Source: Cystobasidiomycetes sp. EMM_F5
Taxonomy: Eukaryota
Length of the DNA: 64,000 nt
Reading direction: 5' to 3'
Assembly (NCBI GenBank): GCA_051047955.1
Contig: JBPGPT010000003.1
Location: 1-64,000, forward strand
The notes beneath the pieces were generated by a model. The model did no database searches, had not been told where the DNA came from, and saw nothing but the letters and a program-made list of their open reading frames with translations. The translations under genes were made by a program, and so were the position numbers. Within the stretch, counting starts at the first letter, position 1, and each line of letters begins with the position of its first letter. Positions 35,424 to 45,337 of this stretch are shown here, piece by piece.

Positions 35424-38400
35424 ATGAGCGAGCCGGTGTTGCCGCCTGCTCGGGCGCGGACGCCGACAGCCAGCACCCATCATCACCCACGCAAGAAGCT
35501 GCTCAATAGGCTACACGCTATCGTATCAGGGCCTAAACGTCTGCTAGGTAATCCGACACCTCCAATTCTCGACCCATACACTCCAAGCGGTGGTAGCGAA
35601 ACATCGTCATCGGTCAATAGTAATCTTGGCGAGAGTGATGACGACGAACAACAGTCATCGTCCAAACGTACCGCTCACCTGGATGACCAAGGCGAGGATG
35701 GACGAGCGGAGAGACGGAGAGGTCGCTCAGGCACGGCTTTGCCAATGGCTATACAATCAGCAGCTGCATCATCGAACGCAGGCAGGGCTCCACCGCTATT
35801 CAGAAGCGATTCTGCGTATAGTTCTCGCGTAGAACATATAATCGACACGGAGACGCCGCAACCTCCGGTAATCATCAGACCCCACTTTAAAATCCGTATC
35901 GTAACTTGGTGGGTAGTGAGATGAACGATGGCGGCAGCTCAATCAGTGACTATCCAACTGATCTCAGGAATATGCACGACTCTTTACCTTCTGGCGATTT
36001 GACAGAGCTGATGGGCCACAATGAAGGACCGAATATCAAAACGAGTTGCTCCAATCTTGAAAATGATAGCACTAGACCGACATCAGGGGCCAATGTAACA
36101 ACATCTGAATCTTCAGGATACGGCGGAGAATCTGGCAATCCTGATAATGATCAATTTGGCATACTCTCGGACAAATCGCCATATCATTTGGTAGTCGTGG
36201 GCGGCCAAGAAGTCCCGGTAGGTGGTATGGGATGGAATATGCCCAACTGGACGGAGGTTGTACAATCCTGGTTGGACGGCGGACAGCAATTCGCTCAGCA
36301 GAATTCTACGGCTGCAATGCGCCGAGAATCACAAGTACCAAGCGACACTGAAGGAAGGGCGGTGTCGCCATCTAGCAACCTACATGTGGCAGAGCAAGCC
36401 CTTTCCATGAGCGATAGCCCAATCTCGCCGCCCGTGTCGTCCGCCTCAGCGAGTTTTCCCGATGCGGCCAGTCCTCTTCTGCGAACAGAGGATCAAGTCT
36501 CAATCAATGCGAACAAAGATGCTGGCTCAGACAGTGCGGATCGTACACCGCAAGAAGCGCATTCCACCCCCTTTGCGCACACGAACGGGGAGTGGCCAAA
36601 GATAGACGACGAGGCGGTTGAGTCTGATATGCCTAATGAAACCGCCTTAGACGTTCAAGACGAACGTCTTTTACCCACTGCAGGAATCCGAGACCGCATT
36701 GGCGTTGAATCCACTACGATGCTTTCTCCTGTTCGCACGGAGGGTCTGTGTGCAATCCCAGCGTCTCAAGTTCCAAGTCCACTGTTACAGCCGATGATAC
36801 CCGCAAAAGATCGGGAGAAACGAGGCAGTATTACTGCTGCCATGCTTGGAGGCTTGCGGTCAGACAAGGATCGACTTCGGGATAAGGAAAAGGATAGAAT
36901 GAAAGACAACCAAGAAGCAGAGCGACGGCAAAGACAGGCAAACTCAGCTTACATACTAGTTACCAAAGAACGCCTGATGGGCATCTACATCAGCATATGG
37001 GTGCACAGAAGCGTGCAGCATCTCTTGCGAGGCAGCAGCACCGGCACTGTAACTGCAGGCTTACTAGCGGGAAAACTCGGTAATAAAGGCGCCGCATGTG
37101 TCGCTGTGCACATGAATGCATACTCCGGTCCTAATTTTGCCGATAGAAGTGGCGAAGACAGGTCATTGCGGCTGTTGTTCGTCTGTGCTCACCTCGCTGC
37201 GCATTCGGAAAAAGCGGCTACTCGGCAACAGAACGTGAACAAGATCAAAGAAGAACTCCTTATAGATACTTTCCGCGGTGATGAAACTCTGCGCAGTGAT
37301 GAAAGCAAAGAGGAGGCCAAGGAACGCTTACATCGAGAACACCGAGAGCGTGCAGATGCGCGTACTACCGATATCACAGATGCCTTTGACTACACTTTCT
37401 GGTTCGGAGATTGTATGCATATGCTTTCGCTCGCATTGGAGATATGCTCACACGGACACTTTCAGTGAATTTCCGTCTAAATATTTCCAGGCTGCACGCC
37501 GATTACCTCATCAATAAACAGAAAGACTATGCGACCGCCCTGTCGTTCGATCAACTGGCACCAATCCTGTGAGCGATCTTGTTGAGTCTTATAGTCGTTT
37601 CGTCCTGCTAATGTCAGCATTGTACACAGGCGAGACCCTGCCGGGTGTTTCAGCGGTTTTAAAGAAGCGCCAATCACCTTTCCTCCCTCGTATAAGTATG
37701 ATCTGATTAAGCTGAAACGCACGAAAACTTTGCAGAGAGCAAACACAACCTCATCAACCACTTCTTTACATCAACCCGAAGGACGCGCAGCCAAGGCCGT
37801 ATCAATGCAGCCAAGCGCATCGCGAACGACTCTTCCTATTAAAGAGTGCGATGAGTGTGCTATTGATGGCGAAGATGGCGAAGATGACGAAGAAGATGGC
37901 ATTTCACCTGTCGATGATCGCAAGACGGTGGCTAGCTCTAAAGCGTCTATCAGATCCTCGTACTCGATGACCGATCGACAGCTCGATATCATTCATCAGC
38001 ACAGTGTCGTGTCGAAGAAGTCTACGCCAAATTCTCCTATTCCCACTGCCGAGAAGCTAGCAGACAGCGCCAAAAACTTCTTCAACATTCACCGTCCACA
38101 AAGTGTCCTCGCTCGCGTCACTTCCTCATCGTGTGCAAATGATGCTGCAGCTCGTCTCGAGACAGGGGCCGAAAGCCTACCTGCTTCGAGTCCTGATCGT
38201 GCTGCAACTGATAATCTTGCCTCGGCGGTCCAGATCACTGCTACAGGCAACGATGTCGGAGGTGTCTCGGAGCTCAACGAGAACCCGCAAATTTCGGTAT
38301 CCTCGCCTCAATCACCTCGATATTTCACGCGCCCGATCTTGCCACGCATGAGGACCAGTACCACTATCACATCAAGCTTTGATGTTACTAGAGCGCCCAG

Positions 38401-39784
38401 TCGCAATTCATCAAGGAGGGAGACAGGCACCTTAGATGAAGAAGAGGCAGTCTTTGACACATCAAGTAAACAAAGGGTGCAAAGCTGGACTGATCGCATA
38501 CTGTACAAATCGACCATAAAAACTGTGACCGAGCTGCAGCAGGAAGCGGACGCACGCGAACAAGCGGAAAGAGAATCTCGGCATCTGGGTAGTGTTTTGC
38601 TTGATTCTCTGCGTGGCGTTAGAAGGACACTGACTGGCCATGGGAATGAGCCCAGTGCCACAACTAGTCCTGCCATCGATGTTGACGTCAAACGCAAGCT
38701 ACTGTCGCGGGTCACTTCTTTCAGTGAATCGCATCAAAGAAATGATAAGAGGGGGCTGGCACCCTCAACGACGGTGATCTCCGCCCTACCAAGTGCATCG
38801 CAGGTCTCGCTGTGCGATGACGTAGCTTCGCGATCGAATCACCGCGTCAGACAGCGTCTCGGCAAGCTCTTCCGGCGGAATAGCAGTGACCTGCAAGTCG
38901 AATTGTCCGAGAGCAGGGGCACCCAGAGAAAATCCGTGGATGATGTCAATCTTCAACGACGGGCGTCCTCCTCGCATCGCAACGGACCTTTCCTATCGTC
39001 TGGCTTGCGGAGATCTACGTCAGTCCGCTCTACGGCCTCTATGCATGCAAAAGATGCGCCGGGAGCACACACTCAGCCCCCTTATCGTCCGCTACCAAGC
39101 ACTAACACGCTTGTATCGAATTCGGCCTTGAATGCAGGTCGAGTTGACACAATCGCTTTACAACGAAGTGCGCATGTGGAAGGAAGCTCGCCTATTCCCG
39201 AAACTGGTGGATGGGTTGATGGGCAGACAAATGGTGTCGACGATGATGCTTCGTCCCTCGTTCCAAGTCCAGGCGCATTGACTGGTGACGGCGTTTGCCA
39301 AGACACGATCATTCATAACCGACGGTCGACAACTCCACTTCCTTCATACGATCACAAGCAGACCGATACAGTCCATTCAGCACATCCAGTGGCATCAGAT
39401 ACTCGCCCTTTGCCCACTCGGATCACCCTCGCGCACGCCAGCACTGTTCCTGTCCGCACTATGGGAATGTCTCCCGAACACAACGAAGTCGGCGGCGGTG
39501 CTTTGCGGCAGTGGTGGAACAGTCACAACTTGCACATTCCCTTTTTCGCGCATCACAATCAGCCGTCAATCTCTGCCAGTCTGGCCGATGAGAGTTGCAC
39601 TCCTCCGAGCATGCCTTCAAATCTTTCCGAACCTCTCGACATAGCAGTAACACTTCCACGCCTAGTGGGGCCCGAAAGAGGTGAAGTGCAGTGCTTAAGT
39701 TATCAGTCCATTCATGATTTAGTACGTATGCAAGCATTATCAGATCATCATCCTGTTGTTGCTACTTTTGCTGTAGGCCTGTAG
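35424..39784 (+). CDS. Inositol polyphosphate 5-phosphatase
   Basis: IRIVTW/NM, GGQE, GNKG, CAHLAAH, FWFGDLNFRL, FPPSYKYD, SWTDRILYK, SDHHPV. Confidence 0.92.
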
Positions 39785-40127: not shown

Positions 40128-42873
40128 TCAAAGCATGTATCGATAACCAGGATGTAACTTTTGCGAACAGTCAGCGAAGTCTGGGGTGCGGCAGAGAAAC
40201 GTCACACAACTGACCGAACCTAGGCTCAGGATCTCTTCCTGGGATTTTCCTTCCAAACCCCACTTGCTCAACTGCTCCGGACTAGCGTGCAGTGGATTGA
40301 GTCCCGGCGCGGCTGGTCCGTAAAGCTGATCACGTCTACGATTCTCACGACCGTGGTCGATCATAAGGATCGCTGTGCAAAGAATGGCCAGAGCCGCGAA
40401 TGCAAGCGCAAGACTGTGCCCTTGGAAGTAGCGAGGCTTCGAGTTCACGGGCCAAGAAGCGGGAAACGCACGAGACAGGAGAAAGAAGTGGGAGTAAAAT
40501 TAGTAAAGCGAGGCAGGTTTTCGCTGTTGTAGACCTACCGCTGTCGAGGCCGGGTAGACCTGCAGCAGAAGTAGCGGTATCACGGAATCTCAGCCGATCA
40601 CGAAACAGAAGCTGGAACCACGCAGCACTGACATTACTACTGATAATACCGGCACTATTACCTGCAGAAAAGAAGATGCCCATGACTGCCGCTCTGGTCG
40701 TAACGGGGCCCCAGTTAGATCCGACCTGCAACGCGTTGTATCAGTTGCCTGCTGTGGACAATTAGATGCGGATACGGCATACGAAGGTAATGGCAAGCGC
40801 GATGCCTGGCGACACTCCAGCAACCGTCAGAAAGATCGCAAAATACGAGACAGCCGAATTATTCTGCGCGATCAGGATAATGTAGCCAATGATCGTGATG
40901 GTCATTACCAGGATGAGCCAAATACCGCGGCGCCGCGTTTTGTCGGACAGCCAGCAAAATCCGAGCGTTGTGAGGAAGCCTAGCGCGAACGGAGGCGCAC
41001 TTAGAGCATTAGCAGCAGCATTCGTGAATCCTTGCGGTGATCGTACGTCAGAACAGCCTCGAAATACAGCAAAGCTGTATCAGACTCACCTAAAGCAGCA
41101 ATGATGGAGGGCAGGAAGAGAGATACACAATAGAATGGCCTGCCAACAAATGGAATGGCGAAATTAGTTGGTTCTGTCTCCACTTTCTGGCGGTACTTTT
41201 ATTCGTTGGTTCTGCTCTTGGGCAGACTCAAGAATAGAATATCACCTACATGGCGATGCTGATGTATAGAGTTGCGTAGATGTATGTGCGCCAGTCCTTC
41301 AAGGCTCTCCAGACGTGATCCCAGTTGAATGGGAGTGGCGCAGAAGTTACGCCCTGAGAGACATGCAAGTGGTGCATCCAAATTTGACGATCATTTCCTT
41401 GGTCGAGAGTCTTGGACTTGTCGGGAAAGTCCGTCACAAGCCAGTATCCCGGAAGCGCACACACGAGGGTCAGAAGACCTTTGGCGGTCCTCGTGTAAAT
41501 TGGAGGCAACGGAAGCAGGAGCATATGACTTTACCTTCGAGAATGAAGATCCAAGACCATGCGCCGCGCCCACCTACGCCGTCCATTTCTGTGGACGTAG
41601 TGAGGATTACTATTTGGGAGGATTGCATTGTCTTGCAAGACTTACGGCGAATACCGAAGCTGAAAAAATTTAAGCATCAGTAGTAAACAGTAAATATGAC
41701 CTCGCCGTAGTCAGTTCAGGGTACACTAGTCTTAGTGAGGTCCAAGCCTACGCCTGAAAAAAGGGAAGCAATCGGAGAGTCGTAAGAGATTGAGCAGAAA
41801 ACGAAGACGATTCAACCGACGAGTAAACCTCCGAAAGCGCCCGCGAGCGTAGCACCTGCAAAGAACAGAGCCACTCGCTTGCCAAGCTCCTCTCGAGTGT
41901 ACCAAAGCGAAAAGACAAAATTAAGGCCTGGAAAATCGTTCAGCGTGTTACTCTTCGGAGTGACACAGGCCTATGCGTAGCTTACCTGGAAAAGTGTTGT
42001 ACAGCATACAAGCCCCCGACTATGTTAGTATATTTGGTGAGCCAGACTCGGAAACTAAGATGCGTGCCTGGGAAAAGACCTGATGCGGGGTACCTGCCGT
42101 CAGTGCAGGCAGAACAGGATTACAGCGTATATCTCACCTCCTTCGAACAGACCAAGCAAGAAACGGACCGCCATTAGTTGTCCTGGTGTTTGGACGAAAC
42201 CCTTACGAAACGAGAAAGTCAATACCAAAAGGAACATACATAATTCTGTCCAGCTGACCATAAAAATCATGCAAAGCGACCAAGCTATCATATTCCCAGT
42301 GATCCATGGACGAGGGCGTATGTATTTTAATGCCAAGTTGGATGGCAGCTCGACGGCAACGTCTGATGAAATGTCAACGTTCAGCCAGAGTATACTGGAA
42401 GGCGGGCGAGACCAACATGATACGAAGAAGACGGTAAGAGCGATTTGGTATTCATCGTTGGTCATCTGCGTGCAGGAATTGCCGTTAGAAGCTGTTTCTG
42501 CTGCTTCGAAAGAACCTACCTTCAAGGCAGGAAGGAGGCCTGCGACCTGATCAGTGATGGTCAGCAAATTCGTTTCTCAGTAGGCATCGCGATAATGTCT
42601 TCACTCTTGCTTGACCAATATTGACACGGTCTGCGCACTAGCTTCAGCCGAGTCATCCTATCCGGACCAAACGATGTGTGGCTCACCGAGAAAGGACAGG
42701 AGGTACAGCAGAGCGCTGTATGGAACTACAGCGTAGTCAATCTTGCGAAGTATGCGTTTGACATCTTTCGGGTCGGCATCAGGGTCGCCGGGCAGACTGC
42801 GTGCATCGATGTCGTTGATGCCATTCTCAGACCCCTTCTCTTCGTTAGATTGTACTGCATGATGGGAAGCCAT
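40128..42873 (-). CDS. MFS anion:cation symporter family permease (TNA1/DAL5-like)
   Basis: ILRKID, LSFLDRVNIGQA, ELPSN, RFLLGLFEGGLFPG, WYTREELGKR, W.WIFILEG, HPGYRYML*. Very intron-dense. Confidence 0.92.
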
Positions 42874-43332: not shown

Positions 43333-45337
43333 TCATTGCCCAGTAGGCGCAGTAGCTTCCCGCTCATTGGCCGGTGCTACCGCAGACATGGCGTGACTCT
43401 TCTCGGTATGATGCACTGAAGCGGTAGGACTTTGCGGTCCCATCGAGTAGTGCGTATAATCTACATCCCGGCGTACAAATGCATAATCGTAGCCAAGTTC
43501 TGGGAGATGACACGCAATTTAGCGGTTTGATAATTAGACGAAACTCAGGAAAGACTTACCGCCAATTTGGTCCTCGTCGCAGCCGACCAACTCGCCCTCT
43601 TCGGATACTCGGAGAGACAATCCTGGGATGTAGTCGAGAACCACGCAGATAATCATGGTCACGACAAATGACCAAGCAATAATGGCAACGGAGTCCGCCA
43701 ACTGGTAACCGAGTTGCACGTAGTTGTGGTCTGGTCGGCAAAATACACATTAGCTGGCCGAACTGGACATTTCGCACGAATTGTCGCAACTTACTGATCC
43801 ACCCTCCGGGAATAGAGCTGAAGCCATCGAAGTCGACAATTCGCGAGTCCGCGAACAGACCAGTCAACAGGGATCCGACGAAACCGCCTACTCCGTGTGT
43901 CGCAAAGATATCAAGAGCGTCGTCGTAGCCAAAGATGCCCTTGAGTTTTGTTGCAAAATTGCAAGCGACTCCGGTGACGACGCCGATGGCAACTGCTGCG
44001 GGGGTACCGACGTAACCGGATGCAGGAGTGATGCCGACGAGACCTGAAATGGCACCAGAGCAGAATCCGACTGCGGACCACTTGCGCTCAAGACGCCAAT
44101 CAAGCATCATCCAAGTCAGACCGCCAACGGCAGCAGCGACGTTGGTGACCAGAAGGGCTTGAGTTGCCCTCAAGTTGGCAGCAAGTGCGGATCCTCCATT
44201 GAAACCGTTCCAGCCGAACCACAGGAGTACCGTTCCGAGAACGACAAAGGTGGTGTTTTGTGGCTTGTAGGCCAAGGAAGCGGTACCGTAGCCCTTACGA
44301 CGTCCGAGCCAGATGGAGTATGCGAGCGCGCCAGTACCGGAAGTCATGTGAACGGGACCTCCACCAGCGAAGTCGAGCGCTCCCATGATGTATGTCCACC
44401 CATTCGGTGCCCACGTCCAGCAAGCAACCGGGTCGTATACCAATGTTGCCCAGATGAAAGCAAAGACCAAGGCAGGAGCAATACGCCCTCTCTCCGCAAC
44501 AGCACCGAGCAAGATCATAGGCTAATTGGAGAAACGTGAGCCCAGTGCGCCGAAAGCCAAGCTGAACAATGCATGCGTACGGTGATGGTTGCGAACATCA
44601 TTTGGTAGACGCAGTACACCAATGCGGGAATCTTTGCGGAACCGGCAGAGACCTGGTCGAGAGTGCTCATGAGACCGAAGTTTCTCAGGTCACCAATAAA
44701 TTTGCTGCCAGTGGGCGAGAATGTGAGTGAGTAACCCCAGAAGAACCACTGTACAGCCGAGTGTGTCAGTACACGATGCAAGAGACAGCTACCGGTGCGC
44801 AGCATACTTGGAAAGCGACCACTGTGCACGAAGAGGAGATCAGCAGGTGCAGCATGCGATGCTGAAGCTGCTACATACCCGAAAAGACGGCCATGGACAG
44901 AAATATGGGCTGTAGTGCATTTTTCCGCCGTAATAGTCCCGAGTAAAAGAAACCAACTGTTGAGAAGAGAGCAGTGTATTAGCTTCCTGCACAAACCATC
45001 TCGAGAAGAGCGACTGCTCACGACCGGGTGTCACTGAAAGATGACGGAACGGTACAGTGCCGCGATTAGACTGCGTCGAAGCTCATTGTCAACGGTAGCA
45101 ACCTACTGATCATCACTGGACAGCAGACACATATCAGTCAGCATCCCATTCGATATTTGGCAGGGAGGCTTCGGCAACGGCTTCCGAAGAAGCGGAGAGT
45201 CGCTGCCATCCAACAAACTCACCAAGAGCCGTCGAAGTAAGCACCCAGGCGATATCACCTGGATTGTATACGTTTACTGTCCCATCCTCGAGGGTCGAGA
45301 TCATAGACCCGCTCTGGTCATATGTGATGTTTGGCAT
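43333..45337 (-). CDS. MEP2: Ammonium transporter (Amt/Mep), twin-His type
   Basis: GDIAWVLTSTALVMIMTPGLGFFYSG (assembled from micro-exons), QWFFWGYSL, DFAGGGPVH, LLWFGWNGFNGGS, DDALDIFATHG. The exact paralog is uncertain. Confidence 0.92.

Follow-up and report, generated by a model that had tools for sequence, protein, structure and literature searches.

A candidate zero-length exon between two putative abutting introns in a Tna1-like transporter gene of a cystobasidiomycete

The stretch of DNA analysed here, hereafter referred to as the window, comprises positions 1 to 64,000 of contig JBPGPT010000003.1 from Cystobasidiomycetes sp. EMM_F5 (GenBank assembly GCA_051047955.1). On its minus strand, between positions 42873 and 40128, the window carries a gene for a Tna1-like transporter of the major facilitator superfamily (MFS), which was modelled with 18 exons, 17 introns and a coding sequence of 1539 nucleotides (nt) for a protein of 512 amino acids. 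Between a 12-nt microexon and exon 8 of this gene, 140 nt (42067 to 41928) have to be removed, which start with GC, end with AG and contain an acceptor that directly abuts a consensus donor. We lean towards the interpretation that these 140 nt represent two abutting U2 introns separated by a zero-length exon, which would be recognised by intron definition, could be removed in either order and are likely the scar of intron gain.

The intervening sequence follows the microexon GTCTTTTCCCAG (42079 to 42068; like all features of the gene, it is read on the minus strand), which encodes (G)LFP(G) and whose 3' end, TTTCCCAG, is followed by GC. The upstream unit of 82 nt (42067 to 41986) has the donor GCACGC (42067 to 42062) and the acceptor TTTTCCAG (41993 to 41986). 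Within this unit, there are the motifs CTCAC (42043 to 42039), TACTAAC (42030 to 42024) and ATAG (42023 to 42020). Thus, the 82-nt unit has a CTAAC branch of its own, the branch A of TACTAAC is located 39 nt from the acceptor AG, and AG is absent between 42019 and 41988. The downstream unit of 58 nt (41985 to 41928) has the donor GTAAGC (41985 to 41980), again the acceptor TTTTCCAG (41935 to 41928) and two branch-like motifs, GTAAC (41951 to 41947) and GCTGAAC (41944 to 41938), of which the latter is 12 nt away from the AG. Introns 1 and 4 also have the word GCTGAA close to their 3' ends. Both units meet at 41986/41985 in the zero-length junction TTTTCCAG/GTAAGC (a slash within letters marks a splice site), where the acceptor lies directly against the consensus donor. 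The motif of ratchet points, a pyrimidine tract with AG/GTRAGT inside an intron, is therefore found at this position. An earlier note on this DNA had described the microexon, the GC donor at 42067, TACTAAC, ATAG, the internal junction and the acceptor at 41928, and all of its coordinates turned out to be correct; the GC occupies 42067 to 42066, and the last bases before the exon are a CAG ending at 41928. The division into abutting units of 82 and 58 nt, each with a branch-like motif, is correct as well.

The join between 42068 and 41927 is forced because homology allows no other. The stretch G-L-F-P-G-L-N-F is invariant in an alignment of four relatives; the homologous stretch reads FEAGLFPGLNF in the proteins P0002 and P0004 and LFEGVLFPGLNFVFSLYY in P0126, and the model containing this join reads RFLLGLFEGGLFPGLNFVFSLWYTREELG. 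The join yields LFEGGLFPGLNFVFSLWYTREELG. Removal of the 140 nt from 42067 to 41928 alone restores GLFPG/LNF, and the sole near-canonical boundaries for this removal are the GC at 42067 to 42066 and the AG at 41929 to 41928. The earlier note had also proposed that a GC-AG removal is unavoidable here, which is borne out by the invariant motif. The GC is the only donor among the 17 introns that is not GT. An early stop arises whenever the 82-nt unit, the 58-nt unit or all 140 nt are kept, or when a 34-nt exon between the ATAG and the internal junction is included. Skipping of the microexon would preserve the reading frame, but four conserved residues would be lost. Several other boundaries were rejected by reading, namely the donor GTTTCC at 42054 as a substitute for the GC, exon starts after the AGs at 42055, 42047 and 42020, and an intron extending from GTAAGC to 41856, which result in a frameshift, a stop or extra residues. 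The spacing between FPG and WY is otherwise fixed at seven residues, and some of the alternative exon ends would add residues to it. The anatomy of the intervening sequence and the net removal of its 140 nt are established.

The MFS gene is intact and transcribed. The model, which begins with the ATG at 42873 and ends with the stop codon at 40130 to 40128, was derived from tblastn alignments with P0002 and P0004 and from reading of the sequence, and in the tblastn comparison it is colinear with these relatives over the full length, as is expected for a Tna1/Dal5-like member of the MFS_1 family. The relatives of the gene product carry PF07690, and P0126, the closest full-length relative, matches the Pfam family MFS_1 with an E value of 4.5e-39. 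Using exon 12 as the query, 4 of 23 candidates had an E value of 0.001 or less, and these were basidiomycete Tna1-like proteins with 53 to 61% identity. Seven of the 153 candidates obtained with exon 14 passed the same threshold, the best showing 74% and 71% identity. A protein identical to the gene product was not found in the searches with exons 12 and 14 (best 61% and 74%), and two single exons of the gene, which are too short to match, gave no Pfam family. Furthermore, a spliced RNA contig of 246 nt from one public run (share 0.06) is identical to the window and covers 40854 to 41268. Its splice junctions are exactly those of introns 12 (41249 to 41140) and 13 (41089 to 41031), and the gene is therefore transcribed and its transcript processed. 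Introns 1 to 17 have lengths of 56, 58, 54, 54, 57, 58, 140, 67, 92, 57, 56, 110, 59, 57, 73, 102 and 57 nt; 11 of the 17 fall between 54 and 59 nt, and 54 nt is the minimum. With 17 introns in a coding sequence of 1539 nt, the gene is unusually intron-dense, and its exon lengths include 12, 2, 14 and 21 nt.

For scoring the splice sites, matrices were built from the 16 other introns of our own homology-guided model, two of which are confirmed by RNA. The internal donor CAG/GTAAGC scores 9.5 bits, as compared to 0.5 to 10.8 bits for the 16 other donors. The outer donor CAG/GCACGC scores -1.7 bits and is thus below all of them; with a T at position +2, it would score 3.2 bits, which is still less than 14 of the 16 other donors. 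Since the outer donor is the weakest of the gene, U1 should favour the internal one. The internal acceptor (41986) and the final acceptor (41928) score 6.7 and 5.7 bits, respectively, and the 16 other acceptors range from 3.4 to 10.2 bits. Neither its length nor its donor, its branch-like GCTGAAC or its acceptor sets the 58-nt unit apart from the normal introns of the MFS gene. As regards the 82-nt unit, its TACTAAC contains the CTAAC core that is used elsewhere in the gene, most introns of which have a strict YTNAY candidate at a distance of 11 to 24 nt from the AG. TACTAAC is not enriched in the window, where 3 matches compare to 3.21 expected.

An internal AG/GT whose donor and acceptor scores are at least as high and that leaves at least 45 nt on both sides was found in 29 of 200,000 Markov-simulated introns of 140 nt and in 45 of 200,000 shuffled ones. 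Moreover, the 14-nt pattern YYYYNYAGGTRAGY has a single match on both strands of the window, which is located at the junction, while 0.17 matches are expected; at least one match occurred in 16 of 100 shuffles. These sequence statistics suggest that the internal junction is more than a chance motif, and a zero-length exon is therefore the best-supported reading. The earlier note had left the choice between a zero-length exon and a poison exon acting as a switch for nonsense-mediated mRNA decay (NMD). The former interpretation gains support from the statistics, whereas the latter suffers from the poor ATAG acceptor.

In a fungus with short introns, splice sites are presumably paired across the introns; this expectation follows from a statement in PMC7138796 and from passages of PMC6616335. 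The strong GTAAGC donor (41985) would pair with the acceptor located 58 nt downstream (41928), giving a GT-AG intron (41985 to 41928), and the weak GC donor would be spliced to the internal acceptor (41986) by way of the TACTAAC branch, giving a GC-AG intron of 82 nt (42067 to 41986) with CTAAC as the branch. Excision of the 82-nt unit as the first step would regenerate the 5' splice site CAG/GTAAGC and would thus be strictly recursive splicing. With the 58-nt unit as the first to leave, the internal acceptor would adjoin exon 8. The mRNA would be identical in either order, and two lariats are predicted. We infer that the internal site is actually used and that the 140 nt are spliced stepwise.

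The same gene contains a parallel case. Introns 8 (41820 to 41754; 67 nt) and 9 (41751 to 41660; 92 nt) are separated by the 2-nt exon GC (41753 to 41752), and the conserved GGLLAFGI is readable only with this exon; reading of the sequence yielded no canonical alternative. Provided that the gene works, the fungus therefore removes introns that are 2 nt apart, which makes a distance of 0 nt less strange. Intron 9 also has an internal AG/GT, GGCGAG/GTCATA, which would split it into 51 and 41 nt; the 41-nt part would be shorter than any intron of the MFS gene.

The arrangement has likely originated by repeated local insertion or duplication, as is suggested by direct repeats at its borders. The sequence TTTCCCAG/GC at the outer donor is repeated as TTTTCCAG/GC at the final acceptor and the adjacent exon (10 nt each). 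For the repeat at the intron borders, TTTCCCAGGC and TTTTCCAGGC, the score is 8, which only 1.1% of 272 control pairs reach. In the donor, the GC corresponds to the first two bases of exon 8, which complete the split Gly codon, and the repeat would thus explain why the donor is GC. According to this scenario, the coding site ...TTTCCCAG/GC... would first have received an insertion or undergone a duplication, with a direct repeat and thereby the GC donor as the result; a target-site duplication at ...CCCAG/GC... would leave a repeat of this kind. The 58-nt unit would then have been added by another event, at the 3' splice site that had newly formed. Beside the copy R0 at the 3' end of the microexon, there are the copies R1 (AACACTTTTCCAG/G; 41998 to 41985), which includes the zero-length-exon junction, and R2 (AACGATTTTCCAG/G; 41940 to 41927), which spans the last bases of the 140 nt and the first base of the exon. 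On its upstream side, the repeat between the two units (AAC..TTTTCCAGG) is longer than the one in common with the microexon, which fits an older GC-AG intron of 82 nt whose 3' splice site later received the 58-nt unit.

In the repeat search, the 3' ends of introns 8 and 9 were listed as family D3 (spacing 94 nt) and those of the 82- and 58-nt units as family D5 (spacing 58 nt). When the last 25 nt of the introns and units were compared by local alignment, introns 8 and 9 ranked first and the 82- and 58-nt units second among 153 pairs. The same ranks were obtained by 3'-anchored identity with the AG excluded over lengths of 12, 15, 20, 25 and 30 nt, rank 2 of the two units being tied at lengths of 20 nt or more. 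It is conceivable, and we propose it tentatively, that both abutting pairs, the one with the zero-length exon and the one with the 2-nt exon about 170 nt downstream, arose when an existing intron had its 3' splice region duplicated, with filler DNA between the copies. The architecture has the appearance of a side effect of introns being gained through local duplication or insertion, and not of a ratchet that has evolved for a long intron. The idea that the 82-nt unit was copied from intron 6 and the microexon did not reach significance and was rejected (z = 1.1; 46 of 300 shuffles were as good). A search for a repeated element or introner by blastn-short with introns 6, 7, 8, 9 and 12 against the window returned self-matches only, any other matches being at most 15 nt long with E values of at least 0.31. 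No Rfam match was found in 41500 to 42400 with E values up to 1, and the predicted RNA structure of the 140 nt is inconspicuous (z = 0.41). The 82-nt unit could form a terminal hairpin that carries TACTAAC in the loop (-18.4 kcal/mol; z = -1.57; 12 of 200 shuffles were as good, a weak signal), and its stem pairs the 5' end with a stretch 15 nt from the 3' end.

The intron positions in relatives provide a context for this origin. In the window, exon 6 (42201 to 42138; 64 nt in the homology-guided model) ends with ...GFVQTPGQLMAVRFLLGLFEG and the first base of the next Gly codon. It is followed by intron 6 (42137 to 42080; 58 nt, GTGAGA...CTGAC...CATCAG), the microexon, the 140 nt and exon 8 (41927 to 41821; 107 nt), which encodes (G)LNFVFSLWYTREELGKRVALFFAGATLAGAFGGLL and is 79% identical to P0002 and P0004 by tblastn. 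Relatives are encoded at 14 metagenome loci, 12 of which have the xFPG motif, and seven distinct loci were read. At two of them (L001 and L005), an intron after FPG is absent, and an intron is instead located just before AG[LF]FPG (phase 0 after Glu), 4 nt upstream of the position of intron 6 in the window. Intron 6 interrupts the second Gly codon in phase 1, and the difference from the phase 0 intron of L001 and L005 could reflect an intron shift or independent gains. In L007, L011 and L012, an intron is found 3 nt downstream of the position of the 140-nt intron, and L002 has one about 21 nt downstream, before WY. As the positions differ across the seven loci, the intron positions around the FPG motif are fluid in this family. 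L001 also has one continuous exon where the window gene has introns 8, 9 and 10.

Several observations weigh against two abutting introns that were gained by duplication. The scoring matrices rest on only 16 modelled introns, two of them RNA-confirmed, and the acceptor matrix is weak: of the 408 AGGT sites in the window, 12 exceed both loose thresholds, ordinary exon ends among them. The distance of 39 nt between branch and AG in the 82-nt unit exceeds those of all strict YTNAY candidates listed for the other introns (4 to 36 nt). GC donors are usually strong in consensus otherwise, and the donor of the 140-nt intron, at -1.7 bits, does not have the consensus that would be expected on this general ground. 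The RNA contig from the one run covers 40854 to 41268 and leaves 41928 to 42067 uncovered, so that neither an intermediate, nor a lariat, nor the mature junction was seen in it. As regards the origin, the similarity of the 3' ends could be a convergence on a pyrimidine tract followed by CAG/G. The alignment of the whole 82-nt unit with the whole 58-nt unit gave a z value of 0.5 (97 of 300 shuffles were as good), and among the 153 pairs, the interiors of the two units rank 61st and their first 22 nt 8th. Outside their 3' ends, no likeness of the units is detectable, and a duplication of a whole intron is therefore not supported. Moreover, L013 probably has an intron of 123 nt (L013:716-838) at the identical position, interrupting the Gly codon of FPG in phase 1, although another parse places this intron 4 nt downstream. 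A recent gain is therefore uncertain. L013 is a distant relative, and the donor of its intron, GTTGGT, is the hexamer of intron 4 of the window gene.

Other explanations of the 140 nt have to be considered as well. The sequence might be a single ordinary GC-AG intron of greater length, removed in one step from 42067 to 41928 with a branch near 41939 to 41948, and the internal AG/GTAAGC would then be a relic or due to chance. The net removal is identical in this case, so the mature mRNA cannot discriminate between one and two steps. There are other long introns in the gene (92, 102 and 110 nt), of which the one of 110 nt has no useful internal AG/GT and is confirmed to be removed in the mature contig. 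Furthermore, a later insertion of the second unit would imply that the outer donor was once functional with a downstream acceptor. However, the spliceosome would have to ignore a 9.5-bit donor at 58 nt, the modal intron length, from the acceptor and to favour a donor of -1.7 bits, and the simulations (29 of 200,000) illustrate how rarely chance provides such a junction. We therefore regard removal in a single step as unlikely, though still conceivable. A defect is rather improbable. The C at 42066 might stem from a T-to-C change of recent date or from faulty assembly, or the gene might be decaying, so that the GC would not act as a donor. In favour of this, it could be argued that the GC is the sole non-GT donor among the 17 introns and has the lowest score, and that no identical protein was found (best 61% and 74%) whereas the neighbouring ammonium transporter has a match of 92 to 100%. 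Yet the 18 exons give an uninterrupted protein of 512 amino acids that is colinear with its relatives, and the spliced contig identical to the window is evidence for transcription and processing. Moreover, the flanking repeat explains the presence of the GC, and a T at position +2 would leave the composite architecture standing.

A regulated NMD switch would tune the expression of the transporter either by using the ATAG acceptor (42020), thereby including a poison exon of 34 nt (42019 to 41986), or by retention of a unit. The 34-nt exon and each of the retained units indeed lead to a stop within 13 to 29 codons downstream, which for the 34-nt exon is at codon 170 of the model, and CTCAC (42043 to 42039), which precedes the AG of ATAG by 20 nt, might act as its branch. 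However, the ATAG acceptor scores -4.2 bits, which is below all 16 others (3.4 to 10.2 bits) and is hardly a usable splice site. It is located 5 nt after the branch A of TACTAAC, and the resulting intron of 48 nt would fall below the 54-nt minimum of the 17 introns. Such a switch is very improbable. Least credible of all is the idea that the whole 140 nt are a diverged tandem copy of the downstream exon, in which the internal AG/GT would correspond to the coding GCAG/GTGCT of exon 8. It is true that GLFPGTHLSFRVWLTK, obtained by reading through the donor, is aligned by tblastn to GLFPGLNF[LV]F[ST]TWY[ST]R of the relatives with 41 to 47% identity over 17 residues, five of which belong to the real microexon, and that the intron sequence TTTCCAGGTAAGCTACGC can be aligned to TTTGCAGGT--GCTACGC of exon 8. 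However, the local alignment score of 22 is not significant when compared to 19.2 +/- 3.1 for shuffled sequences (103 of 500 shuffles were as good), and the in-register identity of 17/48 is reached by 6.9% of 2,753 background windows.

The two abutting introns that we favour can be compared with known systems. Recursive splicing via zero-nucleotide exons is described in parts of 10.1101/006163 for ratchet points in Drosophila and in long vertebrate genes, and a passage of PMC6616335 cites such sites as abutting U2 introns that are excised by recursive splicing. Like these ratchet points, the junction in the window consists of a pyrimidine tract and CAG placed directly against GTAAGC without an exon, and removal of the upstream part would regenerate a 5' splice site. 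In contrast to the known cases, which subdivide very long animal introns, the host intron has only 140 nt and each part has the size of a normal intron. The downstream unit could thus be removed first, and no obligatory 5'-to-3' ratchet is implied. Ratchet points are recognised by a stepwise removal with intermediates or separate lariats, which for the site in the window is a prediction. The spliceosomal twin introns (stwintrons) of ascomycetes, as portrayed in part of PMC7138796, consist of an external intron whose donor, branch or acceptor is interrupted by an internal intron. The intervening sequence resembles them in being a complex one of a fungus, with two short U2 units and intron definition (passages of PMC7138796 and PMC6616335), and the proposed origin via small duplications of splice elements resembles the idea of 'stwintronisation' (a passage of PMC7138796). 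However, the units in the window abut with contiguous elements, and neither of them interrupts a splice element of the other; therefore, the arrangement is not a stwintron. The removal order of stwintrons is also obligatory, with the internal intron leaving first, and the fungus studied here is a basidiomycete and not an ascomycete. A limited literature search on abutting introns and recursive splicing in fungi returned papers on stwintrons and the Drosophila work, and none of the entries listed was on abutting introns of a fungus. Intron gain by tandem genomic duplication or by double-strand-break repair, which leaves short direct repeats, is treated in passages of PMC4974935, PMC3443670, PMC3265369 and PMC3020277. 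Direct repeats border the 140 nt on both sides (TTTCCCAGGC and TTTTCCAGGC) and are also present where the second unit begins and ends, in agreement with such a gain. An intron at this site is absent from L001 and L005 but probably present in L013. Unlike in a classical tandem duplication, the interior is not detectably a copy of the flanking exon, the repeat is AG/GC and not AG/GT, and two rounds would be needed. Finally, the forced GC...AG boundaries are those of U2-type GC-AG introns, from which the outer donor differs in that positions +4 and +6 are off consensus and that it is the weakest donor of the gene.

As for the surroundings of the MFS gene, it is adjoined by an ammonium transporter gene (43336 to 45337, minus strand), whose exon pieces are 92 to 100% identical to a Cystobasidiomycetes protein of 486 amino acids, which places the fungus in the Pucciniomycotina. 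Residues 39 to 45 of this protein (VMIMTPG) are unmatched in the window, and a microexon of about 21 nt is therefore probably located between 45224 and 44957. On the plus strand, 37595 to 39784 form an open frame of 729 codons that is rich in Ser, Thr and Pro. The plus-strand open reading frame at 41827 to 42177 matched no Pfam family.

How introns are gained is still under debate, in large part because clean examples from nature are few. If the proposed origin is true, the MFS gene would show intron gain next to an existing intron with target-site repeats that are still readable, a GC donor that is a copy of the last two bases of a Gly codon, and strict recursive splicing in an intervening sequence of only 140 nt. 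Gene predictors usually do not model exons of 0 or 2 nt, and genes of this kind are thus likely missed or shortened in the annotations of intron-rich basidiomycetes. Existing annotation may lack the MFS gene itself or contain it in a broken form, which would come as no surprise if its 0-nt and 2-nt exons are beyond what predictors can model. Should RNA confirm the two abutting introns, it would follow that short fungal introns are still removed when 0 or 2 exon bases lie between them, that pairs of this kind originate where DNA is duplicated or inserted locally at a pre-existing 3' splice site, leaving repeats that can still be seen, and that a non-canonical GC donor can be inherited from duplicated coding bases.

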